A DNA stretch of 20,000 nt from an uncultured virus (IMG/VR IMGVR_UViG_3300033121_001188) (Duplodnaviria > Heunggongvirae > Uroviricota > Caudoviricetes), in the IMG/VR virus record IMGVR_UViG_3300033121_001188; one strand, written 5' to 3'. Shown here one piece after another: positions 2-19,998 of this stretch. A program made the position numbers and the translations under genes. Every line of letters begins with the position of its first letter. Position 1 is the stretch's first letter. Under the pieces are notes generated by a model, which made no database searches, was not told the origin of the DNA, and saw nothing but the letters and a program-made list of their open reading frames with translations.

Positions 2-703
2 TTGGATGTAATCAGAAATTTGGTCGCCGCTTTCGTTGTGGTATCTATGTCTATCGAGGTTAAGATCACAGATAGTGAAGTCGATACATACAGGAATTCT
101 AGTGAAGTAAGAATTTTTCTTGATACTCTTGTAAGTGTATCTTGAAGTAGAGCAGTAAGTGTTTGTACAGTCACCAATAACACCAGTTTTACCAACCTTA
201 GTAATTGTGTCTCCTGCTGCCAAAGTTACAGCGCTGTCAAGAACGATTGTAGTTGGAGCAATTGCATCTGGAGTAAGATTTGATACTACTCTGAAGCTGA
301 TTGTTCCATCTGCTTTCTTGATTCTAACTTTGTCTCCAATGCTTAAACCGTTGAAGTTGTCATAAGAATCGATTTTTGATACTAGTACATTCGCAGTTGC
401 TGAGATTGTAGCAGTAACAGTTGCTTTAGAGAACATAGGTGTGTATGGTCTTTCGTACCATGTAAGTGCACAACATTTGTTAACCATCCATTCTGCTTTT
501 GCGTCAAATGGAAGTCCTCTCATTTTAATTGTAAACATTGTTTCGCCGTTTTCCATAACTTCTGCATACGGATCGAATGCAAGATAGTTAATGTCTGGGA
601 AAAAGCTTTGTGTAAGCGTAAATAAAGGCAAGCCTTCCTCTTGGAACGAATTCTGTAACTCGGTCCAGTCAAAACTTGCTACGCAGCTTTCGTTTGCTGA
701 CAT
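2..703 (-). CDS. Putative major capsid protein, N-terminal 234 aa (3' end outside window)
   Basis: ATG at 703, open to the window edge: MSANESCVASFDWTELQNSFQEEGLPLF...CCALTWYERPYTP...GLSIGDKVRIKKADG...YFTRIPVCIDF. It follows portal and scaffold. A W-x-E motif precedes a beta-rich insertion, as in SU10-type capsid proteins. The call rests on synteny and motif resemblance. Confidence 0.72.
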   Translation of the reverse strand, partial: MSANESCVASFDWTELQNSFQEEGLPLFTLTQSFFPDINYLAFDPYAEVMENGETMFTIKMRGLPFDAKAEWMVNKCCALTWYERPYTPMFSKATVTATISATANVLVSKIDSYDNFNGLSIGDKVRIKKADGTISFRVVSNLTPDAIAPTTIVLDSAVTLAAGDTITKVGKTGVIGDCTNTYCSTSRYTYKSIKKNSYFTRIPVCIDFTICDLNLDRHRYHNESGDQISDYIQ

Positions 704-764: not shown

Positions 765-1463
765 TTATGCTACGTATGCTTTTTTCTTGATTACGTTGCC
801 GTAATACTTGAATTCTGGTTTTTGTGTTTTATTTGTGTCTTGAATATTAGCACTGAGTTTTTCTTCTGGGGCGATGATTTGCTTTCCGGCGAATAGTTCC
901 AATACTTTAGATGCCCTAACTCATAGATTTTCCTCTGCGTATTCTGCTATATATGACAGAAACTTTGTTTTTGTTGCTTCGTCTCTTTCTTTTTCAAAGT
1001 TATAGAGAGCCCTGATAAACAACTTGTGTTCTGGTAATACTTGCACAGATGATGATTTTAGTTCAAGGTTTTCTTGTAATAGCTCGACGTTCTTAGCTGT
1101 CAGTAGTTCTACGGTTTTCTTTAATCAGACATTTTCAACCTGTAGTTGTGCCTTTTCTGCGGCGTGTTGCTTTAGTGCGGGCAATAGGTCTACGTCTGCA
1201 TTGTCTAGTTGTTCTTCCAATTCTTTTTGGATCTCTTCTTCAATTTCTTGTTTCGCTTCTTGTACGTGTTCTTCTACCTTCTTTTCAATTTCTTGTTGGA
1301 TCTCTTCTTGCGATTCTGTTACGGCTTCTTCCGTAACTGTTGGTTCATCTGTTGTAGTGGTTTCTTCCTGTTGGTCTGGTTGTGTAACCTGTGTTTCTTC
1401 TGTTGTTGCAGTTTGTTCAGCGTTATCGATAACGCCAGCTGCCTCTAAAATGTTTTGTGACAT
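765..1463 (-). CDS. Putative capsid scaffolding protein, 232 aa (code 25)
   Basis: Extends ORF 1125..1463 through two TGA codons to TAA at 765-767. Acidic E/Q/T-rich N-terminus, coiled-coil middle and basic C-terminus (KYYGNVIKKKAYVA). Located between portal and capsid. Confidence 0.75.
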
Positions 1464-1612: not shown

Positions 1613-3619
1613 TTATATTGCTTGTCAAGATACAAGCGGTTGTGGTAGCTGTTGTTGCTGTGCCTGTTGTTGCGGTTGATACTGTATCCCAACTTTTTCA
1701 AATAATTGCGCTCTAATATTTTCGTCTCATACGGCCAATATATCCTCTAGCCTCATTGTAAGAGATATATTAACTGGTTTAACCTCTGGTCATTCCACTG
1801 GAGGTATATACTTATTCCTTATCTCTTCTGATTCTTTTAGATATTTATATCTTTCTTCTTGTTCCGCTTTTTTATCTGCTGGAGTTTGAATAAGCTCTGA
1901 TATTCCAGCAAGCTCATATATCTTATCTACAAGAGCTCTATAGTTCGTTGGGTTCTCTCATGTTACTGGATCTGGTGGCAATCCCTGCACGTATTGTATG
2001 ACGCTCACGAGCTGCTCTAATTTATCCGCGTTTCCTCCTATAAGGTCATCTGTGCGGAATGTTATGTTATATCAGTTAGATATATCTTTGACAGTAATTG
2101 ATTGTATTTCGTCATCAGACATCGAATCGTCTAGCTCTATGTCTTGACCATGAGCTTTTATAAGCAATACACACTTCTCAGCTGCATTTGAAAGGCTTGA
2201 AGATATGTTGTTAACCAAGGATACTATCTTGTTGCTGCTTGCCTCGTATTTCAGCGATGCTCACTTTGAACTCCTTTCGATACCTCATGTTCCGCCCTCA
2301 GTATATGGGTTTAATCACACCTTCGCATTAAACTTCGTTTCAACTCTGTCTAGCTCGCTAGATAGGGCCGCTATTTGACTTGGCTCTATCACTCTGACTG
2401 GCGATATTCATGCATTTGATTGTCATGGTGCAGCCTCAATGAATCATCGTGCCTTGTATGAAAATACTTGGCTATTATTCTTATTTCTTCATATCTCTGT
2501 TTCCTTAGAGAACATTGGATTACCAAGCATATTGATCGCTATCATCTTTGTCTCTTGAAGTCTATCGGCCTCTGCCTGATACGATGCTCACATGTCTCAT
2601 AGTCCTGATCAGTACACTACTCATGGTATTATCTTGTTCCTAAAGTGGACTATTGGCGATCACTCAAACGCATATTGCGATGGTCACCGATAGATCATCT
2701 CTTGGTTAATAATAACGCAATTATATGTAACATATTTTCCGTTGGTCTCTTTTATGTCAACAAATAAGTCAATAACTTCAAAACTATCATCACTAATAGA
2801 ATAGAACTCTTTTTCACTTTGTATTTGTCACCTTTGTATTGCAGATAGTAGTGAATCTGTAGTGCGCTGCGCGTCACATATTACCTTGTTCTGATATGAT
2901 TTAATGTCCTTGACTCTGTTATAATCGTATAGATAGTATCATTCCTTATCTTTAATGAGATCTCGCTTTGTTGGTTCAATTGTATACAGCTCTCTTATCT
3001 GCTTCTCTGTCATGAAGCATCTGTCTCCTGATATTCTATTTAGTCAATACGGATCTATGATGGCGTCAAATACAGATACATATTTTAATACTGGATAACT
3101 CATAGAAACATCATGAGATACGACTTCCGTAGATCAATCCTTTTTCTTTTTATAGTTATCTACAATAGACAAGTTCTTGTTTTTCCACATGATCTTTAGG
3201 AATCCATTTCCCGTTAACAGTGCTTCGTCAATAGCTTGGTTGATGGCAAGATTATTGTCCTCTCTTGAAAATATCCACTGGCAAGCCTTTTCGTACATCT
3301 TTGCCCCCTTGTTGTTTTTTTTACCAGCATACGAAGCGGCCCTTACCCTTTTTAGATTGAGCTTACTGAGCATTCAAGAAAATGTATTGTGCGCTCTTTC
3401 GATAAGATCTGTCTTGGAGTCAGGATTATACTGCCGCTCCAATCAAAGCTCCTTCAGCACAAGAAATCTTCTTGCGTTATATCACAACAAGTTTTCATAG
3501 TCCCTTATCCAGCATGGAACGTATTTGCTTTGTATGTACGAAGTACAAGAACTTGCCCGCGCAAGCATTTGGTCTCTTACTTCTTCTGGAGTGAGATTGT
3601 CTATTTTTTCGATATTCAT
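1613..3619 (-). CDS. Portal protein (P22-like), 668 aa (code 25)
   Basis: Single frame with no TAA/TAG. Motifs typical of P22-like portals: AIDEALLTGNGFLKIMW, YVSVFDAIIDP, IPGVVYGSGLGDMGASYQ, VGLNPYTEGG...SKGASL, GYNITF, DPVTG, and a Q/P-rich C-terminal tail. Confidence 0.88.
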
Positions 3620-3638
3620 TTATTGTATAATACAGCTA

Positions 3639-4070
3639 CTAAAAGAATGTTCAGCCATCCGTGTTTGATTTTACTCTAGGTAATTCCCTTTTATCTATAA
3701 CGACAGGGTCTTTCCCTCTGCTTATCCTAGTTATATCAGCCAAGGCCTTGAGTCACTTCAGCATTGCTCATTTTTCATCGAACATGTAATCTCTTTCCGT
3801 GTAGCTAACTAGTTTTTCCAGAAGATAGTCTACTACATTAGTAGAGTCTCAATCTGTTTTGTCACTTATTTTTTCAGACGCCTTTTGTCTTATTGCTGCT
3901 GTCAGCTCTTTTTCACTTCGGAATGCTGATTGATCTAATATTACTACTTCATTTTCTTGAGGGAGTATACTGGTCGACTGAGATTGCTGCTGTTGCTCAT
4001 TTGATAACTCCTCTGTAGTAGTTTGTTCTGTTGGTTTCGGCTCTTGTGAGCGCTTTTTCTTTACCGCCAT
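3639..4070 (-). CDS. Hypothetical protein, 143 aa; possible terminase small subunit
   Basis: Extends ORF 3849..4070 through TGA to TAG TAG. The C-terminal half (VVDYLLEKLVSYTERDYMFDEKGAMLKGLKALADI) resembles the TerS oligomerisation helices. It sits directly before the portal and overlaps the upstream gene by 233 nt. Confidence 0.6.
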
Positions 4071-7000
4071 TTAGTGTCCATGCTGTTGATAAAAGCTCGT
4101 AGTTACGAGTTACAAATTTTTTCATATCCAATGCATCTTTGAATATATCTATTGGGTCATATTTACCTCATATTTTCTTTCATGACACTCTTCCTGATGT
4201 TCATCATGACTTTGGAAGCGAATCGTCTTGCACTGTTTTTATTATGTATTCCTTTGCCCGATCGTTTATATAGTTAGATGATGCGAACAACTCTCACAAA
4301 GCCCTGTCTCCAAATTCTCTAAGCTCTGGGTATTTTCATGGGTTATTAGTGTATTCTAACAATGCATCGTAGTTATTTTTGAACATCTCTGTCATCACAA
4401 CCGCCTTTGCATCTTCAGATATTGGCATTCATCTCACTGTTGACAATTCATCTCCCATAAATGCAAGCTTGAATCTAGCGGTTAACGAGTCCCTATCTCT
4501 CTTCTCTTTTTCGTTTTTGGGTTTTACGCCATCGTTGATATATATTTTGCTTGCCATAAGAGATAGCTCGGACAGCTCTCATGTTTTTGGAAGCTCTCAC
4601 TTGGAAAGTCTTCAAAACATTTCTAGCCTTTTTTGTACATAGGCCTCTTCTCATGGCGTCGGCGTAATTCATACTACTCCTTCTTGGTATTTGTTTACAA
4701 CTGTCATATAAGCTGGATTGTTAGCGGCCTGCACCAATGGTAGAAGCTTTTCCGCAATAGCTAATTTTACATTTCTTCTGTATAGCTCGCTGGACGATTC
4801 TGATTTGTCAATTACGTCTATATACATTGTTCAGTCTGGGTTTAACCCTATTTCATGTTTCTTTTTCAACTGCTTGGCAGACAAACCAAATTCAGACTCT
4901 GATATAAAGTCTCATTTTTTAACTTCTTTTATTCAGTTGACAGTGGCTATATATCAGTTTGCTGGTACATATACAATGTCTCATTTTGTTGCGCTATCTA
5001 CTAATTGGTTGGCCATATATGTTAACAACGCATAAGATGTTCATGGTCCTCAGTTTTTCAATAGACCAATTGCCTCTCAGTGTGCCTTCATAAGCTTATC
5101 TGTTTGGCTTCCAGCAACCTCCAAGAATTTTGCATACACGTCTCATCATCACATTGATTTCGCAAGAGTGGCTTTATAGAGATCTGTTATCTCGTCGTTT
5201 ATTACTGATCACTCTCCCTCAACTGCGGCCGTATTAAACACAACCTTAAACACAGCATCCTCAAACTTTTTCTCGTCCTTCGTATTACGATAGAGCTGCT
5301 GTCGTTTTTGTATTGCCGATTGGAGTACGTTGTCTCATGCGTAGAATCATCTGATTACAGTATCTGAGTTCAGCTTATCGACCTTCTCGTCTACTTTTTG
5401 CGCAAATGGTAAAATAGACGCATAATCCTTTGTGTTGGATATAATAGTCTTGAATGCCTTTGTAATTGGGCTGTTTTTCCACAATAAGAATGGATAGTAT
5501 ATTCACTTAGTCTCTGCGTTTAGTAATACATTGTTGTAATCCGCCCTTTCTCTTGCATTTGTTCTCATGATCGCTTGTTGTGACTCTAGGTTTAACGCTT
5601 CGTTGAACTCCCAGTTTTTTTCTGAGAATAGCGCATCTCAAAGAGTTCCTTCATCATCAATTGCGATGTTTCTTTTAATTGTATTTACGTTTGCGAAAAA
5701 AGTCTGTGAAATAGCTTCTGTGAAGTAATCTCGTCCTTTGCCGTCTGTGGTCGCAGCGGCTCATACGAGTCCAGTAACTAATCTAGATACGGCTGGTAGC
5801 AATCTAATTTGTCTGCCAAACTCCCTAATAGACTGGTTAAGTCACTTATATAATGCGAACTTTGTTCAAGCGTCTAGGTATCAGTCTATTGTCTCAACCA
5901 CTACCCTTCAGTATGAATTCGCCATCACTCAAGCACTCAGTAAAGAAAAGTTCGCTAGATTGGATAATCTATCAATATAGTTCTTGTCTGGCCTTCATTG
6001 TATCCTATTTATTCTCTGCTCTCGTAGCAATCAGTTCAAAAGCATTGCCATTGCAGCTTGAAACTCTAGCGCTCAAAGTCCATCTGTAAATTGTGATAAC
6101 GCTTCCTTTACTCAGCCGTTCCTAAATCAGTTCACGGCTCATACGAACGGCGTTGCAAAGTTTCTGGCATGGGCTTTCATGACGGCCAATCACCATCATC
6201 CCATATACATTCGTAGCCTATTAGCGGTAGCGGCGATAGACTCATTTTGAGCCTCTTGTGCAAACTTAGCAGCGCTGAATCATCTTAGTGTTGGCATAAA
6301 AACATTTTCTGCCCTATCTGCTATCTTCTGTAATAGATCTGCTTTTCAAAGTGCGTCTGCCTGTCTATATTGTGTCAAAAATGCCTTTACTCATCAGAAC
6401 TTCTCGGCTGCGGCTTGGAAGGCAAGCTTCTTTACTTCTGGATCGAACACAGCTTCTGCAATATCTCACGTGTTAGATACGTTTGGCTGAAACTTGCTAT
6501 TCAACAGATTATTTTTATACGATCTTATAACGCTGCCTATTTGCCTCCAAGCCTGTACTCATTTTTGATATGTGTCCTTATTTAGGCCAGTTGTTGTAAA
6601 CTCGTCTAACTCTAAGAACGCCGTATTGTTACGTATGTATCCTTCGTTGATCATTAACTCTAGCATCTCAGAAACATCTTGATCGGAGTCAAACAACAGT
6701 CTGGAAAATGTTGCATACTGTGTTTTTGATTGAATGGCTTGTGGTATAAACTGATAATGGCTTAATATGGGACCAAATATTTTCGCAGCCTTACTAATTC
6801 GCTTAACCCCCCTATAAACCCCCCTTTGCACTGCTCACCACGCTCATGCAAGTTCCTCTAGGCTCTTTCATCATAAGTGCTCTAGTATGCCAGTTAGTTC
6901 GTTTACCTTTACGTTCCAAAATTCGTTTGTTTGTATATATCTTGCAAGGTCTGGAGATAGTTGCTCGTAGCTTGCGAATATGTCATTTCACGTAAAGAAC

Positions 7001-7527
7001 TTCTCCAGCGCCATTGGTTCTTTGCTAGAAGAAAGCACGTCCTTTACTTTTTCTGATGCCTGTATAAACATCTTTTGTACTGCTGGATCGAACTCTGATC
7101 TTTTCGAGTTAACTTGTAAGTACTTTCTTGTATTTCTAAGAGAGCTTTCAATGTCAACTATATACTTGGGATTCGATCTTGCCCATCTGAGATATTCAAG
7201 AGACGTATTGTCTCATATTGACAATCACGACTTAATCCTATCAATATCAAACTCTACTGCGTCTTGTGGTCTTTCAACATAGTCAAATTGTCATACGGAT
7301 TCTTTTATAAATGTTCAAACCTTTCATGCCTTACTTTGCTTCTTTGGTTTTTCGTAGAACAATTGTTTAATTGACTGCTCTATGTCTATTTTGCCAATAA
7401 ACGGCTGCACAATGCTATTGTATTTGTTTTGCGCCGCTTTTGGTAATTTTTTCAAGAATCATCCAAACAAGGCTTGCGTTTCCTCTGTGATGTCTTTATC
7501 TAGTTGCTTGATGTCGCAGTATGTCAT
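3838..7527 (-). CDS. Large putative virion ejection (internal) protein C, 1229 aa (code 25)
   Basis: ATG at 7527 (MTYCDIKQLD...), one frame without TAA/TAG to 3838, containing ORF 6559..6831. Helical composition, Gly/hydrophobic segments and a basic Gly/Lys-rich C-terminal tail. Function is inferred from size, composition and context. Confidence 0.78.
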
Positions 7528-7528
7528 G

Positions 7529-10500
7529 CTAATTACATGGATTATTGATAGATTGTATCTGTTCGTCTATTTCTTGCACTATTTCGTTAGACTGCTTATA
7601 CGTTGGTGTTTTCTTTATCTTCTGTTGATAAAACATACTGTCTGGCGTCTTATCAATTAGTTCTATAGCAGATGGCCTTGACACAATATCCTCTATAGCA
7701 GATAACTGTTGTTGATTTCATCAAAGCGCAGCTATTACCGTTTCTCATATATTGGCATCCGCAAATTCTCTTCTAAGATTATCTTGTATCAGTTTTATTG
7801 CATCTGCAGACGGAGATCATGACAATAAGTCAGTAACCCTTATTCCGTCTATCGTTGCTTCTTGTATTACGGACATATCATTAACATAAGCGTTGAATGA
7901 GGTCTGGATGTCGGCATCTGCCGATATACTATATGTTCATAATCTTTGACCTTTTTTGATAGATGATACTACATCTTGGTATCATTTGATTATATTTTCT
8001 ATTGTTTGTGGGTCTGCTCATTGAGCGAGCTCTATCAGTTGTTTTGGAAGAGCGATCTCTCATTCGTATCCATTGATAGTACTGAACACTGGCATATTTC
8101 TTCTAATCAGATCTACGTCACCTATTTTGAATCATATATAGTCTGACAAGTATTTTGTAGATAGATTCTCGGCTATGTTTTTATCAAGTACTACCAATAA
8201 ACTTCAAAGAATGTATTGCTTAGTCTCGAACGGTAAAGTCTTCAGTTCGTTTGGTATATCTCTAATCGGAGCCGCATCTCACAGCTTGTTTGCATAATAT
8301 CTTATTGCTGTGTCAATATCGAATTTGTAAATCTTTCATCTAAATGGTATAGTTGTATATCCATTTTCAAGTAGATTTTTTATAATATCTGATTTTGGGT
8401 TGTTGGCTCTTTGTTCTATGGCTGTTGATATGCCCTCAAACCATGACTTTATATTTTGCTTTGCATCTGTAGATAATTGTTGCTCGTTTCAGAAACTAGG
8501 TACTTTCAATAAGCTTTCTTTCGCTAAGACAGTCTGGACAGTCGGCTGAGTAGATGAGGCTATCTTAATAGTGCTAAACAGATCTCAGTATTCATTCACA
8601 ATGCTTTGTAATTCCGATCTTAGTTTAGACCTATATTCTGAATTTACCTCTTGTGCGCCGACTCACGATAATCACTTAGATGCTCTGTAATAATCATCTA
8701 TCAATGACTCTATCTTATTACCAGCTTCCTCTAGCCCATATTGTATTTGTTTGTACCTTGTTGGCATGTTGCCGTCCGCAAGGGCTGCATCAAATTGCTC
8801 AAACAATGAGTCAGACGCTCAGTCTAAGTCTATGTACCTATTACTCAATCACAATGTCCTCAACGCTCATTCATTTATTACTCATGAGACAGGAGAAGAC
8901 TTCCAAACGCCTGATGCTTTGCTGTCGCGAATTGCCTCATATGCCGTTCATACGACTTTTTGTAGTAATAGAGCAGACCTGTAATCATATTGCAAGTTCT
9001 TTCTTTCCATGCTTGCCACAACTGTTGGATTTGCAGCGGCAAACGCATTAACGGTTGCAAGCATCTGATACTTTCAACTCTCTCATATTGTATTCGAAAC
9101 GTCCAACAGTATCTCTTGGTATTGCGCTTTTGTGGCCTTTCATTCCTTTGCATCTGCAACAAAATCAGATAGCTTGTTCAGAAACTTTGGTATATATCAT
9201 TCGTTTGCAACAACGAAATCGACTATTTCAGATAGCCCGTATGATCAATATGGTATTGATAGTGATTTACTTATAGAATCAGCTAGGTACTCCATTGCCC
9301 TATAATCTGTTTTATTGAACGCCTGTACTGCTGATACGTCCACTCATAACAACAGCTGTGCTAACGGAGCTGGATCTGATTCATATATGTAGGAATAGAT
9401 TTTACCAGCCATGTCCTTTTCTGTTTTTGTCGTCATGCTCTCAACCAATCATGCTATTGATTGTTGTGGTATTCAGCCGAAGTGGAATATATCAGAAGCA
9501 AGTTTATCTGCCAAGGACAATAGCAAAGCTGACGCATCTCATGAGCGCAAAATTCACTTTATTCCAGATAGCGCCTCTTCTTTATCTACGGTTCATTGTC
9601 TCAGCTGGCTTGTGTATTCTACAACGTCTGCTGTTTTTTGGATGTCATAAAAGTTGGCTGGAGTGACGCTCAATCATACGTTCATGTCGCTCTGCACCTT
9701 TGGGTATCTTATGGATACAACCTCATTTATTAACTTTTGCGTCTCTTGCTCTGGTAAACCCGTTTGCAAGACTCTGTCGAATACTTGATCGAGACCAGCA
9801 AATAGTTTGCTAAGTCTTGAGGCGCTCGGAGCATTCACGGTGAGCCTATCGGCACTAATGCCAAACCTATATCCTATTATAGGCATTACCAGTTTCACAT
9901 CTAATTGCTTTGCTTTCCTTTCTACTTCCCTAGGTAGTTTTTGATAACTCGAAAGAACCAATGTTGACCCCTTATGCTGTTCTATTATAGACATAAGATC
10001 AGATCAGCTTGCTTTAACAGCGCTAAATCATGAGTCCACTGAATTTTGTTGGTATAGCGCGTCGTATAATTTTCCATCAGCAGTGTCTATTGCTATGTCG
10101 TTTTCAACTAATATAATTGGTCTTTTCTTTTTTCACGATACCTTTAGCTTTCAAGCGGTTATGTTTGAGATCAAGGATTTTCTTACAGATGCCTCTAGGC
10201 CGTTTTCACGTATTTGATTACTTATTTCGCTTATGTACTTAGGTTTATTCGCCTGTATAAACTTATATATGTCAGAATCAATTGATCACGATATATCTAT
10301 ATAGTCTTTATATATTTGCTTTTTTATTGCGTCGTATATTGCTAATACGTCTTTATCGTCTGACAGCGCGTCAATCTGGCTCTTTGCTCATAATATCAGG
10401 TCAATACGCTCGTTGCTGAGACCAAACACTCATGCTATATCGCGCACTGGCACAATTGTGCTTGATCACTTGATTTGATCTGCTATAATATTGGATTGCA

Positions 10501-11494
10501 ACTCATTATTAGTGTATTGTATATTGTTTCTATACTTTATAGATTCTATGTTGTCTATAACAAATCATTCGCTAACGGTGGCCGCCTGCCTTTCTGATAA
10601 CGCAAATCTTAGTGCCTCAATGTGATCGTTCACGCTAAGTCATTTCCTTTTCGGTAACTTTCTGGCTAAAAATGCGTAATAATCGTCTTCACTATTGATG
10701 CTCAGCTTATCTTCAAGGATCTCATCAACAAACCTTGCTAGTCTGGCAACTACTGAAAAATTAACAGTACCCATTCAAAGCATGCTATATGCCACTATTT
10801 TTGATATTGAGCTTGGAAAATCATCTGCAAATTTTTTTGACGACACTATTGATTTCACAAAATCGTCGCTTACTCATACAGAGAAAATTCTATTTAATAT
10901 TTTATCAACATACGCCTCTTTCTCTGCCATAGACTTTCCATCTAACGACTTAGCTATGTGGTCTTGAACGTCATTTATCAGACTAAACTCCTTATCGGAA
11001 TTGTACTTTGTTATAAGATCGTCTATATCTTGTACGCTTCAAAAGATCCTATTTATTCATAGGTTAAGTTTTTCTGCTTCGTAAAACATCATAGCCGCTA
11101 ACCTGTTGAGCGATTCTCATACTGCTTTTTCGTCTCACAGTATTGCTGCGCCTCATTTTATCTTCTCGAAATTTTCAAGTGCATAAGCAAATCAATTCGC
11201 TATTGATCTGTTGAATAAACTATTCTTTCAAGTCTTCATAGACTCTATTGCTTTCGCAACGAATACTGGGCTATCGACAACGAAATTTATGCTTCAATAA
11301 AATATATTATTGGCTGCGTCTCATACCATAAGGGCAGATTGCCTTGACGCATCTACAAAAGACATATTATCTTTGTATATGTATGATTGCTCCGCAAGAA
11401 AATCCAAAAACTGTTGGTCTGTCGACTTACTAGCTCCATCAATAACACTTGTTATTATATCGTTTAATAGTGATTTGCCTTCGTAGCAGGACAT
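7529..11494 (-). CDS. Large putative virion ejection (internal) protein B, 1321 aa (code 25)
   Basis: ATG at 11494 (MSCYEGKSLL...), open to TAG at 7529-7531 (...QSINNPCN*), containing ORF 9674..9994. No catalytic motif recognised. Confidence 0.78.
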
Positions 11495-11501
11495 ATTGTA
11501 A

Positions 11502-14500
11502 TTAGCATCATAAATTCTTCAGCGGGCTTAGTACCTCATACATAGTATTGATTAGATCAGATTGTTCTATCTTTTGAGCTACGTCTTGCGTAATCTCTCA
11601 GTTAGATACCGCCTTTTGTATTCTTTCGTTTTGTAGGTTTTGTAGTTCTGTTGTAATATTGGTATTCTTTTTATTCTTGAGGTATGTTGCTGCGTCTTGC
11701 ATCTTTGCGCCGTCTGATATACTAGATTTAAGCGCATATACCTCTCACGGTCTCTCCTCGAATAAAGAGCGTAGGAATGGCGTATCATACCTATCAGACT
11801 CTCTTACTCAGTTTGCGGCAAACCACTCTGTCGTAGGAGCTTCTAGTGCATCGAATTCCTCTTTATTCAGGATTGTTCATTTGTCGTACAATCTTGTTCA
11901 TCATTCAAATTTGCTTTGTATGTCAGTTGTTTTAATCGTTATTGCTTGCGCTCCTCATCACTCTTGTATATTTAATGTCACGTTATATTTGAATTGGTCA
12001 GAAAAGTCTCATACCTTCATTGGATTGAAATCGGTTATCTTGTTTCACAGATCATCATATTTTGGTTGCTGAATAGAAACCTTGCTTGAAGCGGCACTTG
12101 AAAATCAATATGTTATTTCCTGACCATTATTTCTAGCAATAAAGTATCATAATACATCATCTGCCGTTTTTGAGTCGTCCTCTACTAGCTTTGCAAGCAA
12201 ATCTGTTCTACTCGAAACTACTCAGATATTATTTAATCACTCCTCTAGCAGCCTTATGTTCAATCATCAGTTAACGGTACTTTGCTTTACAACCGTGGAT
12301 ATATCTGTTGATATGTCGTCAACAATTGAATATTCGAACAGCTTCGTCTTAATCACTTTGTTTAACTCTTGTTCTGTAATAGATCATGCTTTGACGGCGT
12401 TTTGCATAATTAACAATGACTCCTGTCATGCCTGTCTTATTTGGTCTATGTTTTCAAGGTTGAAATTTCCTACCCCAGCATCAAATCATAATTGTTCTAT
12501 CCTCTTTGCAAGTATAGATGACGTAAGGTCGTCATAATTAGCCACCCTATCCACAAGGAACTTTCATGTTTGCGCATTTTTGAGTTTTCCTATTGCTTGT
12601 CGTCAGTCTATTGGTAATCAGAAGAATATGTCTGCCACGGCGTCTGCTTTAGAATAATCTATGCCAGCTATGCTTCATATCGTTCAGTTTATTACTGCAT
12701 TAAGCGGTAATGTTTCTCACAACAGATTTCAAACCGCAGCAACTCTGTCAAGAGTCTGTATTCTAGATATCGCCGTAGTTGCTGTACTGGCGCCACGCGT
12801 TGCAGCCGTTCCAATCCTTCATAGTGCCCCACCAACTAACATACTTGCCACAACAGACACAACGTCGTCTGCATTTATGTAAAGTCAGTTTTTAGCCTTC
12901 TCTATGATTCCTCTGCTCTCATCTGCCTGTATCAGTCTAGTTCCTACGGATCATAATCAAAGTCTATCCATATCGTAGAACCTTTGCGGTCCGACCGCCC
13001 TAGCTCATCATATATATGCCTCTCTTAGTAGATTGAACTTGTTTTCGGTCAGAGTGATTAGGTCTGACGCAACTCATATAGGTGTTGCGATAGGCGAAAG
13101 CCATCCAAAATTATATCATCCAAGTTTCAGTTTGTTCTTTATTTTGAACGACATTAGCATGTCTCATATGTTTGTCTCTGGTGTCTCTCACATATAACGT
13201 ACCTTCAGCACATCGGAGAAGTCTCATTTTCCAGACTCGAGTCTTTGCCTAGCTTCAGCAGCTGGTGCTATTTCAGAGCTCCAATAATTCTGTGGTATAT
13301 TTTTTCTCATATACTCTATTGGCGTAACCCCGTATTTTTCAATGAATCTATCTGTCGCTATCTTTTCTGATTCTTTCGTTGACTTTCAATTTATTACCAA
13401 GTTTTCAAATTGGTTTCATATTAACTCGCTGAAGGCTGGCATTATAATATCCAAAGACGTCCTCAACTTATCTGCCTCCGCAAGTACTTCTTTTCTGGTC
13501 TCTGCGTCTGCTCATGATTCATCAAGAAGCTTCACCGTCGCCTCTATTGTTCCATAGAAATCTCTTACTTTTGCGGTATGTTCATTCTGTAACGCCCTAA
13601 AAGAAACTAACGTTTCGGTTTTCATTCACGCGAGCTTTTTAGCTCACTCATCGCTCAGCTTAATCGCACCAAATGTTTCCGCCTTCTTTGAAATATCTTC
13701 TGACGGCTCTAGATTAGAGAATATTGGTTTTGCTTTTTCTAAATATTTTTGTGTTTTTTCGGCAGATTTATATACCGCTGTTACGTATGACTTGAGTCAT
13801 CAGTACGTTATGTTTATTCAGTCTGGACGTAATGATTTTAATTGGTCATTTATATATGTGTCCCTCATCTTATCGATTGAGTCTAGTCATGCTATATATT
13901 CATCTGCGCTTAGCTTTCAATTGAAAAAACTGTCTCTGAGCGACACAAATGAATCTGTATATGCTTTAGACGCATTATATAGCACCTCTTGTGCTATTGT
14001 CTTCGTAGCCCTAGATGTTGGGTCGCTAAACATCGGCATAGCGCCAGAACTGCTTGTTCAATATTGTCAGCTGTTAGCTTTGAACGCATTGAATTGATTT
14101 AGCTCATTACGCTCCGCTATTCATGTTTGATATGCCAGCCCAGCAACCGCAGCTGATCAAGAAACCGTCTCTTTGAGTCATTGGAAAAAATTACGAGTTC
14201 CGTCTATATATTCTCTTGGATTAGAGATGAGCTCTGCGGCCTGTAGGATAGCGTATCACGTAGGGTTGGTGAATGAGTCAAAAACAACAGATGCTATGCT
14301 GGATGCTTTCTCAGCAATACCGTCATATATTGACTTTACTACGCCAGAATCTGGCAGTGCGTCTGGAAGATTTGCTGCTACAACGGCATCTTGTGCAACT
14401 TGTTGAGCAGCTATAGGTGCAGCCGCTGCTATTGCGGCTTCGGTTGGCAATTGTTGTTGCGCTATATTTACTTTTTGCGCTGCCTCAAAAGCAGAGTCTA

Positions 14501-15002
14501 CTGCTGATTGTAGTTGTCATGCGGCGTTAGTGTCTGGAGCCGGTAATTCAACACCAGCCTGTTGCGCTATATTGTTTGCAAGTTTGTCTGCTTCTTGGGC
14601 GTTGACGGACTGCAATATATTCTGTGCGGCGGTTGTAGCTGCCTCTGTCGATATTTTTGACAATTCTTCTTGTGCGGCTTGTCTCTGTCATTCGTTAATT
14701 ATATTTTGTGCAGCCTGTAGCGCAGCATCAGTTGTCTCGTATGTCGGTGTTCATTGTGCTGCCTGTGTAGCAATATCCACAGCAACCTGTGGAACATACG
14801 TCTGAGCGGCTGCTGTTTCGGCAGCGGTGACTGCCTGTTGTTCAGGAGTGTATTGTAAAGCCTGCTTGGCTACATCAACAGCAACATTTGCAGGTTGTTG
14901 TGCGGCTTGTTGTGCAACAGAAATAGCGGCATTAGCCGCTGCTTTATCGTTTCATCAGAAAAGATTTTTTACATAATCGTAAGCTCTGCTTAGAAAGTCC
15001 AT
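11502..15002 (-). CDS. Large putative virion ejection (internal) protein A, 1166 aa (code 25)
   Basis: ATG at 15002 (MDFLSRAYDYVKNLFGGN...), open to TAA at 11502-11504 (...LKNLGC*), containing ORF 14256..14450. Ala/Gln-rich N-terminus and a Gly/Ala hydrophobic segment (VVSVVASMLVGGALGRIGTAA). Confidence 0.8.
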
Positions 15003-15036: not shown

Positions 15037-17301
15037 CTAGTATCGGTTAGCATTCCATGGAAGCTTTGTTGTTTTTTCTTTCATTTTATTCTCATGCATC
15101 TTCATCAAGAACTCTACTGTATTCATTTCTGCTAAAGTTGGTTTCCTTTGACTCGTGGTCTCTCTTGAAAGAATGTCTCATCTGGTACCAAACAATACAT
15201 ACATAATATATACTCAGAACATCATAGCAAATGCCTTATCGTCCTTTCACACTCATACAAGCCTCTTGTATCCGTTTTTCTGTTCCTTCAATTGCAGGTT
15301 TTCGATTTCATACAAGAGCGTTGTCTGTTCCTGTCATGATGTTTTTGTTGCCAGCTCCCTATTTATTCTTACATAAAATCACTCGAATGCCTCTTGGTTA
15401 TATTTGAGTACTTTTTTAGGAGCTATGTAGAATACTCAGCTGTCTCTATATTCTTTCTGCGTATCGGTTGGCAGAGAGTACATTGGGAAGTCTATCGTAA
15501 GGCGCTGTGATTCTGCGTTGTCTATCCAAGATTTGTCTGAGGTAATATCAGCTCATACGTATACCTCGTTGTCGTAATCTATAAGTCTATCGTGCCATAT
15601 TTCCTTGAGTTGCTTTATTTGGCTTATTTGTCACTTTCTGTCGGTGTTTGCGGTAAAGGAGTCTATCACATATATTCTGTCTCACAAGATTCATAAGATA
15701 CATACTCACGGATCGTCAGATTCTGTCGCCCTGTCGAGATATATCAATATATCATCGAACTTGTCTGGTATATCGTCAAAAGCACCAGCCACATCAAGCG
15801 TTTTTTGCTTGTCCATAAGGGTCGAGAAAAATTCTGCTAACACATATGCATCTCATCTTTGGCGCCTTGCATCTTGTATATTCTTTTTAATATTGTCTAA
15901 TCAAAACCTTTTAATTTGGCTTTCAGAATCATATATGGTGTATCTCTTGCAAACAAACGGCCTTGCGTTGAAATACTCTTCTCTCAGCTGTTCAAGCTCT
16001 CTAAGACTGCTTTCTACCTGCTCTTTTGTTTTTTTGTCTAGTCAATATTTCCTCCATAGCCTTACGATTAGATCTTCGTTCTGTTCATAATCAAATTGTC
16101 TCAACTCTGCAAAAGTGGCCTGTTGATAGAACCAGTTCTTTTGTGTTGAGCTGTCTACGGTTGATATACAGAATAACAGTGTACCATCTGCAATAAGGTT
16201 ACCCTTTAGGGCGTCATAAGCTGCACGATTGCAAATGGCAGCCTCGTCTATAATTGCCGCGAATGGTCTCATACCCCTAATAGACTTAGAATCCGCCGAC
16301 ACAAACACAAGCTCTCACACGATTATCTCCTTTCACATAACTACAGTTTTGAAGTAGAGAGATTTCTTGCTCTCGACAAACTCCAAGTAATACTGTCAAT
16401 AGGATTGTATACTATTTGAGATATACGGAAATATAGAGTTCACAATTGATTCTTCTGTTGGTCCTACATATATCACCTTTCTGTGGGACAATTTATTTGA
16501 GTGGTCTTGTCACAATGTAAAAAGCTCTGCGAGCAGAGTACATATCAATGACTTTCATCATCATCTCGTCATCATTAGATAATTCTCTCTTCCATAGTCC
16601 AGCAAGAACTCTCTTTGCCATCTTTCTAGTTTTTGCTCATTTGGATCATCATGGAATCAACCAAAAAGCGACTGCACGAATCTAGGCGCATACGATCAGT
16701 AAAGAGGCGTAGTAAATGTTCAGCCGTTGTACTTGTAGGCAATGGACGTGTAATCCTCTCATATACGTGTTTTTTCTATGTGTTTGGTCTTTGATCAGCC
16801 CTCTCTCTTATAATATGATATTTCATCGAACCTATACAATCAAGACATAAAAAGCTTCATAGCCAAGAGTCAGTCGTCTATAATTCTTTCTGTTCTTTGT
16901 TTTTTCTTGAATATAGGTATTCCACTTCTGCCATATATGTCGAACTCCTTCAAGAATGATATAAGCCAGTTCTTGATCTCATCAGAAACCTTTCAGTCTT
17001 TTACCTGTAGGTATAGTCGTTTGCGAAACTCTGATGTAATGTCCTCGTATCAGTCTGTCTCAGTAATTGCTGGCACAGATATTTCTATGGGATCTAATCA
17101 ATTGTCATAGTTGAATGTTTCCCAATAGTCAAAATCGCCATACCAGTCTATAGCGAGTTGCGGATCGATACAGAATTTGGCGTTTTCTTCGTTTCAGTCA
17201 TAAAAGGCAGACCCGTCAATTGCTTTTTTATATATAAAGCCAAAATTGTATCTGTTATATTTAGCCTGTGGCGAATAACTATATCTTCAATCATTAACCA
17301 T
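15037..17301 (-). CDS. terL: Terminase large subunit, 754 aa (code 25)
   Basis: Q motif (LERWQ), Walker A TRGGGKS (three TGA codons), VIYVGPT, Walker B SIRGMRPFAAIIDEAA, coupling motif CIST followed by NWFY, and nuclease motifs IYLDRATESDD and GVGKDDKAFA. Confidence 0.93.
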
Positions 17302-17668
17302 GTATCTCTTTTATTAGTTGCTTGATAATTTTGTTTTTTTCCTTAAGTTCATTTATCTCGGACGCGTTCTTCTTCAAAGCAGACTTATATGACGCTATTA
17401 TATTTGCCTTTATTCTTTTGGCAGACTTTGGGTATAGTTTCTCCGCCTTTGCAAGTGCTTTTTCTGGATCTGAAAAACAGTGCTTTTGGTCATATTTTCC
17501 GTTGATTAGTGTTGTTATCTTTCAGTTCGAAACCTCTTTATGGATCGACTGCACGATAATCTTTTCTATAGAGTCTTCTGGACACTTTGTAAAGTCAACC
17601 TTCTGAGTAGCTAGGTCGCTAACTCGTGTTCTTACGCGGTATGCGTACATTTCTTGTCATAGTTTCAT
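17294..17668 (-). CDS. Hypothetical basic protein, 124 aa, with C-terminal coiled coil
   Basis: MKLGQEMYAYRV...KKNASEINELKEKNKIIKQLIKEIHG*. Open under code 25; its stop overlaps the terL start by 8 nt. Confidence 0.7.
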
Positions 17669-17669
17669 T

Positions 17670-18020
17670 TTATAGCGATTGTTTAATAATTCATTCTCCA
17701 AATATTCAATAGTCCAATAGCACCAGAGCTAGCTCGCATATTCATAGGTGTATGTTCTCCGCGACAGTCGGTTGTCATCACAGTATCTCAAAATCAGATG
17801 ACAGATAGCAACAGAATATGTTTCAGTCGGTCTGCTGTAATAACTGTAGATCGTATGTCACTCACTTGTGCATTACTACCGCGGGTAGTTGCCTAATGGT
17901 TGTGAGTATATCAAATTCAAACTTCTTATCTGACTGAATAATGCTATTTTTTTGATCAGATTTGCTTTGTTTTGTAAAAATATTGAAAAATCAACTGTCT
18001 TTTTTGCTCTGTTTTCACAT
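17670..18020 (-). CDS. Hypothetical protein, 116 aa
   Basis: MGKQSKKDSGFFNIF...LLDYGIFGEGIIKQSL*; the second codon is TGA. It tiles exactly between its neighbours (1-nt gap downstream). Confidence 0.65.
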
Positions 18021-18035
18021 TTTTATAATATATTT

Positions 18036-18470
18036 TTAATTAAATCTATTTTTAACCGACTGTATTGCGTCGTATATAGCTGCAGACTTTTTCATATATC
18101 AGTCAAATTCCTTGTGCAGCTTCAATACAATTCACATTGCCTGCAGCCTAAAAATGATGTCGTACCACGACAAATATAGTCTTTTATCTATTGGCCCTTT
18201 TCATATAGCACAAAATACCTTATGTATTGGTATTCTTTGTTTACCATTTTTTGATAATTTCTTTATAACCAACTCGGCCTCTTCATGCGTCAATGGCTCA
18301 AAGATATTTATAAACTCTCATACTATCGCTGGTGACTGGCGTAATGTATGTAATCATGCTTGTTTTCGAACACTACGCTTGCGGTAAACCCTCTCAAAAG
18401 AATCTAGCTGTTCTTCCAAGTCACCCACTCATAGCTCAAATGCTAAGTCATCTGTTATTTGCAATTTCAT
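18036..18470 (-). CDS. Hypothetical protein, 144 aa
   Basis: MKLQITDDLAFELGVGDLEEQLDSFERVY...IQSVKNRFN*. Open under code 25, directly downstream of a predicted promoter. Confidence 0.7.
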
Positions 18471-18476
18471 GCCCAC

Positions 18477-18533: not shown

Positions 18534-18604
18534 AGCATCTGACTGGAATCGAACCAGCGTACACGGCTTTGCAGGCCGCCATCTAACCACTTGATTACAG
18601 ATGC
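18534..18604 (-). tRNA. tRNA-Cys(GCA)
   Basis: GCATCTG/CAGATGC acceptor stem, anticodon loop CT-GCA-AA, T loop GGTTCGATTCC; CCA not encoded. Confidence 0.92.
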
Positions 18605-18734
18605 ATATTTGCAACCGTTGATTGACTGATGACTTTCCCAGCATGAATATATCATATAAATGATACCACATATTTATAAGGCACACAGTGTGGTAGACTG
18701 CAATACCACGCACTATACAGTACGTTTTTATATA

Positions 18735-18808
18735 TGGCGGTCCGTACGGGTAACGCTCCCGTGTTACCACAGTGACAATGTGGCGTCCTACTATTGAACG
18801 AACGAACC
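18735..18808 (-). tRNA. tRNA-Asp(GTC), atypical T loop
   Basis: CCACA-TT-GTC-AC-TGTGG anticodon arm, T loop AGCGTTA, encoded CCA. Confidence 0.8.
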
Positions 18809-18811
18809 AAT

Positions 18812-18884
18812 TGGATAGGGTTGGAATTGAACCAACTTATCTGGCTTTTCAGACCAGCGCCTATACCTCTTCGGCCTCCTATCC
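18812..18884 (-). tRNA. tRNA-Phe(GAA)
   Basis: GGATAGG/CCTATCC acceptor; CTGGT-CT-GAA-AA-GCCAG. Confidence 0.88.
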
Positions 18885-18891
18885 ATACGTT

Positions 18892-18981
18892 TGCGCCAAA
18901 AGGGATTCGAACCCCCACAACAATCTTTCAGTTGACGGGATTTACAGTCCCGCTCCGCCTACCCATATCGGACTTTGACGC
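18892..18981 (-). tRNA. tRNA-Tyr(GTA)
   Basis: CGGGA-CT-GTA-AA-TCCCG, long variable arm, GGTTCGAATCC. Confidence 0.9.
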
Positions 18982-18987
18982 ATAAAG

Positions 18988-19062
18988 TGGAGCCTCCTAA
19001 TGGAATCGAACCATTATCTCATCTTTACAAGAGACACGTAATAACCACTATACTAAGAAGGC
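18988..19062 (-). tRNA. tRNA-Thr(TGT)
   Basis: GCCTTCT/AGGAGGC acceptor, loop CT-TGT-AA, encoded CCA. Confidence 0.85.
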
Positions 19063-19064
19063 AT

Positions 19065-19136
19065 TTGCGGGAGACGGAATCGAACCGTCCTGTTCGGCTT
19101 ATGAGACCGACCTCTGACCCAGTCGAGTTTCCCGCA
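19065..19136 (-). tRNA. tRNA-Met(CAT), initiator-like
   Basis: TGCGGGA...TCCCGCAA acceptor resembling tRNA-fMet; TCGGT-CT-CAT-AA-GCCGA. Confidence 0.82.
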
Positions 19137-19141
19137 TAATA

Positions 19142-19214
19142 TGAGGACAGTAGGGGTCGAACCTACAACCACGTGCTCCCAAAGCACGCATTCTACCATT
19201 TGAAATATATCCTC
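19142..19214 (-). tRNA. tRNA-Pro(TGG)
   Basis: CGTGC-TT-TGG-GA-GCACG; GAGGATA/TGTCCTC acceptor. Confidence 0.88.
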
Positions 19215-19218
19215 TAAA

Positions 19219-19287
19219 CAGGCTGTCCTAGAATCGAACTAGGCCTAGCGGATTTGGAGTCCGCCGTAAAGACCAACAATACAGCCT
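19219..19287 (-). tRNA. tRNA-Trp(CCA), reduced D arm
   Basis: AGGCTGT/ACAGCCT acceptor with G73; GCGGA-CT-CCA-AA-TCCGC; only 69 nt long with a weak D stem. Confidence 0.78.
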
Positions 19288-19298
19288 ATGCTATATTA

Positions 19299-19371
19299 TG
19301 TCCATGGAAGGAGTTGAACCTTCGACTTGCAGATTAAGAGTCTGCCACTCTGCCAGCTGAGTTACATGGAC
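19299..19371 (-). tRNA. tRNA-Lys(CTT)
   Basis: GTCCATG/CATGGAC acceptor; GCAGA-CT-CTT-AA-TCTGC. Confidence 0.92.
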
Positions 19372-19377
19372 TTATAG

Positions 19378-19451
19378 TGGGCCCGTTAGGGATTGAACCT
19401 AAGTATCTCTGTCTTATGAGGACAGCGCCTTTACCGCTTGGCTACAGACCC
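19378..19451 (-). tRNA. tRNA with CAT anticodon (Ile2/lysidine type or elongator Met)
   Basis: GGGTCTG/CGGGCCC acceptor; CTGTC-CT-CAT-AA-GACAG. Isotype cannot be fixed by eye. Confidence 0.85.
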
Positions 19452-19452
19452 A

Positions 19453-19527
19453 TGGGGTGTACGAGGAGTATCGATCTCCCGTCTCCTGCGCCACAAGCAG
19501 GCGTTCTACCATTGAACTACATACAAC
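19453..19527 (-). tRNA. tRNA-His(GTG)
   Basis: CCTGC-TT-GTG-GC-GCAGG; G-1 opposite C73; encoded CCA; 1:72 mismatch and T loop ATCGATA. Confidence 0.83.
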
Positions 19528-19533
19528 ACAAAG

Positions 19534-19608
19534 TGGCGTATACGGTTGGACTCGAACCAACAACCAACAAATTAACAGTTTGTCGCTCTACCTTTGAGCT
19601 ACGTACAC
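19534..19608 (-). tRNA. tRNA-Asn(GTT)
   Basis: ACAAA-CT-GTT-AA-TTTGT; G73; encoded CCA. Confidence 0.92.
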
Positions 19609-19614
19609 ATAGTA

Positions 19615-19686
19615 TAACTCTGGCTGGAATCGAACCAACATCAGTCGGGTAGAAGCCGAGTGCCTTATCCGTTGGGCTACAGAGTC
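19615..19686 (-). tRNA. tRNA-Arg(TCT)
   Basis: GACTCTG/CAGAGTT acceptor; TCGG-CT-TCT-AC-CCGA; D loop CGGATA with A20. Confidence 0.88.
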
Positions 19687-19687
19687 A

Positions 19688-19764
19688 TGGTACTTATGGA
19701 AGGACTTGAACCTTCAGATCGCCAATGTATCAGATTGGTGCTTTAACCATTAAGCTACATAAGT
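19688..19764 (-). tRNA. tRNA-Ile(GAT)
   Basis: ACTTATG/CATAAGT acceptor; CCAAT-CT-GAT-AC-ATTGG; encoded CCA. Confidence 0.9.
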
Positions 19765-19771
19765 TTATATT

Positions 19772-19845
19772 TGTCTCATGTTGGACTCGAACCAACCGCC
19801 TTCAGGTTAAAAGCCTGTTGCTCTAACCAGATGAGCTAATGAGAC
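19772..19845 (-). tRNA. tRNA-Lys(TTT)
   Basis: GTCTCAT/ATGAGAC acceptor; CAGG-CT-TTT-AA-CCTG. Confidence 0.9.
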
Positions 19846-19848
19846 ATA

Positions 19849-19921
19849 TGCACAAGGTCAGATTCGAACTGACAACCAACGCCGTGTAGGGACGCTGCTC
19901 TCGCCATTGAGCTACTCGTGC
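19849..19921 (-). tRNA. tRNA-Val(TAC), C33 variant
   Basis: GCACGAG/CTTGTGC acceptor; GCGTC-CC-TAC-AC-GGCGT. Confidence 0.83.
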
Positions 19922-19922
19922 G

Positions 19923-19998
19923 TGGGAAGGTCAAGGGGATTTTAACCCTCGTCTCCTGCTTGAGAAACAGGTATGTTATTCCATTACACCATGACCTC
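19923..19998 (-). tRNA. tRNA with CTC anticodon (Glu by anticodon), atypical T loop and discriminator
   Basis: GAGGTCA/TGACCTT acceptor, C73, encoded CCA; CCTGT-TT-CTC-AA-GCAGG; T loop TTAAAAT. Confidence 0.7.

Follow-up and report, generated by a model that had tools for sequence, protein, structure and literature searches.

Evidence that TGA is read as glycine in the terminase and portal genes of a divergent uncultured phage

The subject of this analysis is a 20,000-nucleotide stretch of DNA from an uncultured virus of the Caudoviricetes (IMG/VR record IMGVR_UViG_3300033121_001188), referred to as the window throughout, and the meaning of the codon TGA in its genes, above all in the gene of the large terminase subunit (TerL). 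The genes lie on the minus strand, in the order of a tRNA array, three small open reading frames (ORFs), TerL, three giant ORFs, the portal gene, an acidic ORF of 232 amino acids and the start of a 524-amino-acid protein. TerL occupies 15037-17301(-) and encodes 754 amino acids, with 34 TGA, 16 GGN and 9 TGG codons. It matched phrog_9 (E 1.1e-8), and the profile of its family matched the ATPase structure 6m5r (E 5.8e-7) and the nuclease structure 5tge (E 9.4e-5) in the PDB. The protein contains a Walker A motif of the GK[ST] type (TRGGGKS, residues 245-251), a Walker B acidic pair (D352/E353) within IIDEAA, and the nuclease acidic residues; K250, D352, E353, T381, D523, D529, D687 and D688 were invariant in an alignment of 21 sequences, and the C-termini also aligned with those of the relatives. 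The portal gene (1613-3619(-), 668 amino acids, 25 TGA) was assigned by the Pfam family SU10_portal (E 1.8e-9, 37.1 bits with a cutoff of 30) together with phrog_332 (E 3.5e-16) and phrog_1216 (E 1e-6). Its relatives P0005 and P0006 were 36-38% identical to it, and its profile gave chance-level matches only against the PDB.

Within the window genes, TGA is an ordinary sense codon. Under table 11, ORFs of at least 150 amino acids covered 3.6% of the minus strand, and the longest minus-strand ORF had 240 amino acids. Opening TGA raised the minus-strand coverage to 86.7%, with ORFs of up to 1332 codons, while the control openings of TAG and TAA gave 3.6% and 6.7%, so that only the opening of TGA restored the minus-strand ORFs. 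The same behavior was found in two related metagenome contigs, L001 and L002, in which the coverage was 0% under table 11 and reached 92% and 87% with TGA as sense. The 10 window ORFs comprised 6000 codons, with 255 TGA, 141 GGN and 29 TGG; TGA made up 4.25% of all codons and, read as Gly, 64% of the Gly codons (255/396). In-frame TGA codons were spanned by the profile matches of both terminase and portal. They were also present in the motifs that had been cited as examples, namely IPGVVYGSGLG (residues 333, 337 and 341) and DPVTG (residue 554) of the portal, GVGKDD of TerL (residues 683 and 685), and NPDGT (G896) of the ORF at 3838-7527(-). It had further been stated that all genes end in TAA or TAG. 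This is true of the nine complete ORFs (TAA 7, TAG 2), but it follows by construction once TGA is read through.

Relatives of TerL were searched for with TGA masked as X in a set of 1.84 billion representative proteins, which yielded 55 of them. The 33 relatives of at least 550 amino acids were aligned, the shorter ones were kept for a test on fragments, and the window's own fragment, P0013, was dropped. L001 and L002 came from a scan of metagenomes; their TerL genes were identical in DNA sequence, and this TerL was 26% identical to the window TerL. They bear different record names and have matching ORF statistics over the stretch that they share. L002 also holds a DNA methyltransferase gene (phrog_11619, E 2.8e-55) with 10 in-frame TGA codons. 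No confirmed relative was found by the IMG/VR pattern scans (TerL, portal alignment, and a tighter TerL alignment), and tblastn of TerL and portal against 50,697 GenBank phage records gave no match. Judged by its sequence, the phage is very divergent, with no relatives among the GenBank phages or in the IMG/VR pattern scans. The expectation that standard annotation would shred these genes was borne out in the public collections, where the TerL of the window is an 88-amino-acid code-11 fragment (P0013) and its portal a code-4 copy with 25 false Trp residues (P0004). Nearly all records of the family (P0004, P0013, P0007-P0061) are stored wrongly, with false Trp or as fragments.

The meaning of the codon was examined at the terminase ATPase site. 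The Walker A motif (P-loop) lies at 16549-16569(-), where the reverse complement reads ACG AGA TGA TGA TGA AAG TCA in the frame of TerL and gives T245 R246 G247 G248 G249 K250 S251 with TGA as Gly. The preliminary description had pointed to a Walker A spelled with three consecutive TGA codons. This spelling is real and lies on the minus strand, a detail absent from that description, but conservation was found only for the third Gly (G249), which precedes the Lys. Among the 33 relatives, position 249 was G in 25 and a miscalled W in 8, so that all 33 had G or W, while positions 247 (R, W, G, E) and 248 (S, W, A, I) varied. The corresponding codons of L002 were TGA TGA GGT. In the herpesvirus terminase 6m5r, the Walker A RRHGKT aligned to the sResGKS of the TerL family, which identifies the third TGA with the P-loop glycine and places the first two TGA codons at R and H. 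The P-loop consensus is GK[ST], and a reading of WKS contradicts it.

Composition and alignment columns pointed in the same direction. Over the 10 ORFs, Gly accounted for 2.35% of residues without TGA and for 6.6% with it, whereas Trp would account for 4.7% if TGA were assigned to it. Nearly all of the 33 full-length relatives had 2.3-7.2% W and 1.0-4.6% G, which marks them, too, as genes rich in TGA that were translated with code 4. In the columns where the window has TGA, the relatives had W in 20.0% and G in 14.2% of cases; the GGN columns showed the same profile (W 23.6%, G 18.8%), unlike the TGG columns (W 33.7%, Y 12.4%, R 11.3%). Across the TerL family, the log2 odds of sharing a column with W were +2.09 for G, +2.26 for W, -0.17 for Y and -0.64 for F, and seven columns contained at least 80% W and G together with both present, while none contained at least 80% W alone. 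Genuine Trp shows the opposite column pattern in substitution matrices. In the portal, the 25 TGA columns in two relatives (50 cells) held 18 W, 11 G, 4 gaps and 17 other residues, and in seven of the columns the two relatives were split between W and G.

Further evidence was obtained from TGA-free fragments, codon pairs and profile scores. Nine short relatives with at most 1.6% W appear to have been called from the stretches between TGA codons, in which case each G should stand for a real GGN and each W for a real TGG; eight fragments richer in W were listed and not pooled. In two of the nine, the end visibly falls right before a TGA codon or a W miscalled from one. Where the window has TGA, these fragments had G in 18 of 53 cases and W in none of the 53; A came next (8), then N, D and T with 4 each. 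This compares with controls of G 18/29 at GGN columns and W 9/17 at TGG columns. When the window and L002 TerL genes were aligned with TGA masked on both sides, TGA paired with TGA 7 times and with GGN 9 times (window TGA to GGN 5, window GGN to TGA 4), and TGA paired with TGG 0 times in either direction. Profile scoring with all 20 meanings of TGA was done against PHROG profiles, on the assumption that standard-code phages supply most of their sequences. With the portal and phrog_332, Gly came first (59.7 bits), ahead of Ala (52.4), Ser (52.2) and the masked X (40.0), and Trp was the lowest listed (23.3). For the L002 methyltransferase against phrog_11619, Gly was again first (187.7 bits), followed by Gln (177.1), X (171.8) and Trp (162.5); Trp stood third from the bottom, and only Phe was listed with fewer bits. 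The proposed check of the residues at TGA columns in TerL, portal and profiles therefore favored Gly, which ranked first of the 20 meanings for two genes, and the assignment of TGA to glycine (code 25) drew support from composition, homologue columns, TGA-free fragments, codon pairs, profile scores, the herpesvirus terminase and the portal columns alike. We hold it as nearly certain that TGA is a sense codon meaning Gly and not Trp.

Some observations pull the other way. Most of the relatives are themselves recoded, so that the clade enters to some degree into the column, codon-pair, family-odds and portal tests; support from outside the recoded calls comes from the TGA-free fragments, the PHROG profiles and the PDB terminase. 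Conservation is absent at many TGA columns: of the 32 window TGA codons aligned with L002, 20 face a codon for a residue other than Gly, as is expected at 26% TerL identity. The portal with TGA as Gln gave no PHROG match at E<=1e-3, while all other meanings did (23-60 bits); a composition filter acting on the Gln-rich C-terminus may be the cause, which is a guess. The Gly meaning is, moreover, drawn from the comparison of nucleotide and protein sequences. Among the competing explanations, a true stop, in a relic that has decayed or does not code or in a product of misassembly, would account for the almost complete lack of open frames under table 11. It is refuted by the readthrough, which yields five ORFs of 668-1321 amino acids with terminase and portal profile matches spanning many TGA codons, by the in-frame tolerance for TGA alone and not for TAA or TAG, and by the related contigs from other assemblies, which behave alike; its probability is practically nil. 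Selenocysteine was rejected, since TGA makes up so large a share of the codons and fills Gly columns. Tryptophan (code 4) is the meaning that public gene callers assumed for the window contig and its relatives, and the database portal copy P0004 and most relatives are translated with W; coding density, which is unable to separate code 4 from code 25, is the same for both. This meaning is refuted by the composition that it would impose (Trp 4.7%, Gly 2.35%), by the place of Trp as the lowest listed meaning for the portal and near the bottom for the methyltransferase, by the complete lack of W in the TGA-free fragments and by the lack of TGA-TGG codon pairs; the P-loop WKS also stands against it. 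In addition, the sole Trp-type tRNA in view has the anticodon CCA, in an anticodon stem of 5-6 bp, and not UCA, unlike what a system with TGA as Trp would lead one to expect. We regard tryptophan as extremely unlikely.

The remaining genes of the window also depend on TGA. Three giant ORFs are located between the terminase and the portal: 11502-15002(-) with 1166 amino acids and 59 TGA, 7529-11494(-) with 1321 amino acids and 54 TGA, and 3838-7527(-) with 1229 amino acids and 64 TGA. No Pfam or PHROG family was found for any of them. The 1166-amino-acid protein has a low-complexity, Ala/Gln-rich N-terminus, over which the GC content climbs to 0.46, and the 1229-amino-acid protein, besides G896 of NPDGT, has a second in-frame run of three TGA codons at residues 793-795. 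TerL of L001 and L002 is likewise followed by giant ORFs (1558 and 1738 amino acids), which showed no BLASTP similarity to the giants of the window. Between the 1229-amino-acid ORF and the portal lies a gap of 218 bp (3620-3837). Part of it is covered by a 143-amino-acid ORF (3639-4070), which lies in a different frame from the giant ORF and overlaps it. On the other side of TerL, the three small ORFs (17294-18476(-); 135, 116 and 146 amino acids) contain 2, 9 and 6 TGA codons and have no family. The Glu/Gln/Lys-rich acidic ORF of 232 amino acids at 765-1463(-), with 2 TGA and 3 GGN, occupies the place of a scaffold gene, and its position and composition suggest that it encodes the scaffold. 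The window as a whole is best explained as the packaging and head module of a tailed phage with genes that follow code 25.

The last gene, at 2-703(-), encodes the N-terminal 234 amino acids of the 524-amino-acid protein P0062 and differs from its neighbors in its codons. It has 0 TGA and 11 GGN (P = 1.9e-5 at a TGA share of 0.63, uncorrected for 11 ORFs). The full-length P0062 has 32 G and 8 W, a composition that leaves room for at most 5 TGA codons outside the window (P = 7e-10). The gene avoids ATA, AGG and G-ending codons and prefers ATC, TAC, AAC and AGA. ATA is used for 0 of its 17 Ile codons, compared with a share of 0.64 in the other genes, ATC for 0.53 compared with 0.12, TAC for 0.73 of Tyr compared with 0.37, and AGA for 8 of 8 Arg compared with 0.56, while G at the third position falls to 9% from about 20%. 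A test of codon heterogeneity without Gly gave p = 6e-7 for this gene and 0.06-0.36 for five large genes. Genes with high expression usually show such a bias. P0062 is probably the major capsid protein, given its place after the portal and the scaffold-like ORF, and a lead from the atlas, where SU10_MCP clusters were nearest (24 of 30 matches, scores 0.94-0.95). This match is a lead only, as the feature overlap of 146-161 of 256 is below 170, the typical value within one family. Searches with P0062 in Pfam, PHROG and, by sequence, the PDB gave no match, nor did a word search yield a homologue, and the AlphaFold model built from the sequence by itself was of no use (mean pLDDT 34.7). Because this probable capsid gene is expected to be the most highly expressed and has no TGA, TGA appears to be, on balance, a mutationally favored but translationally second-rate Gly codon. 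A recent acquisition of the capsid gene from a standard-code phage would also leave it free of TGA, and we consider this possible but unlikely.

The tRNA array occupies about 1.5 kb at 18534-19998(-), up to the window end, and contains 17 tRNA genes, 15 found by ARAGORN and two added by Rfam. In ascending coordinates, these are Cys-GCA, Asp-GUC, Phe-GAA, Tyr-GUA, Thr-UGU, Met-CAU, Pro-UGG, Trp-CCA-like, Lys-CUU, Met-CAU, His-GUG, Asn-GUU, Arg-UCU, Ile-GAU, Lys-UUU, Val-UAC and Glu-CUC, and the array is transcribed in the opposite order. The genes serve 15 amino acids, Met (CAU both times) and Lys having two each. The count is a lower bound (at least 17), since the array reaches base 19998 and may continue past the window. 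The additions by Rfam are Asp(GUC) at 18738-18808 (46.3 bits) and the Trp(CCA)-like gene at 19219-19288 (31.2 bits with the tRNA-Sec model, below gathering), and Rfam showed no further RNA family in the window. The Trp(CCA)-like gene, which was missed by ARAGORN, has a perfect T arm and anticodon arm with just 16 bases between the acceptor and anticodon stems, which indicates a reduced D arm; the gene may have degenerated or be of an unusual kind. The 17 include none for Gly, Ala, Leu, Ser or Gln. A check by eye of the phage tRNAs against the codons preferred by the capsid gene was mixed, with about 8 cognate codons enriched and 6 depleted.

The decoder of UGA may lie beyond the window or in the host. 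The simplest mechanism would be the extra tRNA-Gly(UCA) that has been described in SR1 and Gracilibacteria (Kantor et al. 2013, PMC3812714). In the Borges et al. preprint, about 90% of genes carry TGA in code-25 phages of code-25 hosts and 26-71% in clades of standard-code hosts. We found TGA in 9 of 10 ORFs of the window (one spurious ORF over the tRNAs being left out of the count), 19 of 20 of L002 and 10 of 10 of L001, so that all three reached the benchmark given for phages of Absconditabacteria and Gracilibacteria, which indirectly favors a code-25 host. With the same ORF calling, the TGA share of Gly codons was alike in the window, L001 and L002 (0.63), and even the non-structural methyltransferase of L002 carries its 10 TGA codons within 174 codons. 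In the arrangement that we judge probable, a tRNA-Gly(UCA) belonging to the host would decode UGA, the cell would lack release factor 2 activity on UGA, the host would be a bacterium of the Absconditabacteria/Gracilibacteria group, and the codon usage of the phage would have drifted under mutation pressure to the AT-rich TGA, leaving TAA and TAG as sole stops and TGA as the majority Gly codon. Three results sit uneasily with this reading. Among the 17 tRNAs in the window, there was no anticodon UCA and no tRNA-Gly; relatives of the portal and TerL were absent in two pattern-seeded scans of 185,579 species genomes; and the bin that holds the one relative with a named source carries the label Candidatus Dojkabacteria, which is not known as a code-25 lineage. 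That TerL relative (P0033, P0067, P0068) consists of two NCBI hypothetical-protein fragments of 226 and 50 amino acids on a 67,964-bp contig named 'Candidatus Dojkabacteria bacterium'. The fragments stop exactly at W residues of a code-4 call in the same cluster, and the contig looks like a recoded phage contig binned with a lineage of the candidate phyla radiation.

Recoding by the phage itself is the principal competitor, in which the host would use the standard code and the phage would bring a tRNA-Gly(UCA) located beyond the window, perhaps with interference with release factor 2. The array of at least 17 tRNAs does run off the window with the tRNAs for Gly, Ala, Leu, Ser and Gln still missing, a tRNA-Gly(UCA) is carried by the code-25 phage RSA-ATP1 (PMC13059738), and one relative is binned with Dojkabacteria, no known code-25 group. 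With TGA at 4.25% of codons and 64% of Gly codons and about 60 TGA codons in each giant gene, however, residual termination at UGA would be expected to abolish the full-length product. The presence of TGA in nearly all genes, including the methyltransferase, lies above the 26-71% of standard-code-host phages, and the binning of a 68-kb phage contig into a metagenome-assembled genome is weak host evidence. As for recoding of the suppressor-tRNA type, in which early genes are spared the recoded stop, no suppressor tRNA was found in the window, and the small ORFs and the L002 methyltransferase all carry TGA; the early region, however, lies outside the window. We consider autonomous recoding improbable. 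A broader version is that the TerL clade is a TGA-to-Gly phage family not tied to the two known code-25 lineages, which could impose Gly on a standard-code cell. Its members would have a tRNA set that is close to complete, with a UGA-reading tRNA-Gly beyond the window, and would keep the capsid gene free of TGA for translation in either state. The apparent TGA usage of the 55 TerL relatives varies widely, and we give this version still less credence than autonomous recoding. A code-25 host with its own tRNA-Gly(UCA) remains the reading that we prefer.

The value of the window lies in a demonstration of TGA as Gly by multiple tests in a phage lineage without relatives among deposited phage genomes, while prior surveys mostly leaned on coding density or terminase alignments alone. 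False tryptophans from code-4 calls, or fragments from code-11 calls, harm homology searches and structure prediction for these phages. In the probable capsid gene, TGA is missing together with further non-optimal codons, a pattern suggesting that UGA is decoded more slowly than GGN, or with less capacity, even in a cell where this reading is standard. A second side observation is the large tRNA array of the phage, in which no UGA reader is visible.

The head genes show likeness to the SU10-type (Kuravirus-like) module, with the portal above the cutoff of SU10_portal and P0062 nearest to SU10_MCP clusters in the atlas. Unlike in a full correspondence, the portal match is limited to profile positions 80-139 and the capsid link is a lead by feature similarity; no SU10 chain was matched in the PDB by sequence with P0062 or the portal profile. 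With regard to the code, the view that phages of these lineages are poorly sampled was partly right, but code-25 phages have already been described (Borges preprint; Liu et al. 2023, PMC10746230; RSA-ATP1), and what is new here is a very divergent lineage with TGA as Gly. The Borges preprint reports a subset of terminases with TGA aligned to Gly, some with Absconditabacteria hosts, and Liu et al. report code 25 for 4 of 38 predicted Gracilibacteria phages of more than 20 kb, and for every prophage. In common with these published phages, the window phage has in-frame TGA packed densely into almost every gene, a low GC content and TGA-Gly columns in TerL, and it is left with next to no annotation under code 11. 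The window phage differs in its much larger tRNA array, and its host is a predicted one. Liu et al. assigned the code from coding density, a measure that is blind to the difference between Gly and Trp, whereas the meaning was tested here. RSA-ATP1, a tailed phage of Absconditicoccaceae (mBio 2026), is a code-25 phage too; unless TGA is taken as sense, neither its portal nor its TerL can be read. Its genome is 39 kb, with internal UGA in 39 of 65 ORFs and 4 tRNAs including tRNA-Gly(UCA); here, the database contig of the portal is 76,195 bp, TGA is present in 9 of 10 ORFs, and no UGA reader is among the at least 17 tRNAs. The phages of standard-code gut bacteria that read TGA as Trp (code 4) or TAG as Gln (code 15), described by Borges et al., resemble the window phage in the use of a stop as sense in structural genes, in phage-carried tRNA genes and in mislabelling by gene callers. 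In the window phage, by contrast, the recoded codon means Gly, recoding extends to nearly every gene and not mainly to late ones, and the gene that stays free of the recoded codon is the probable capsid gene.

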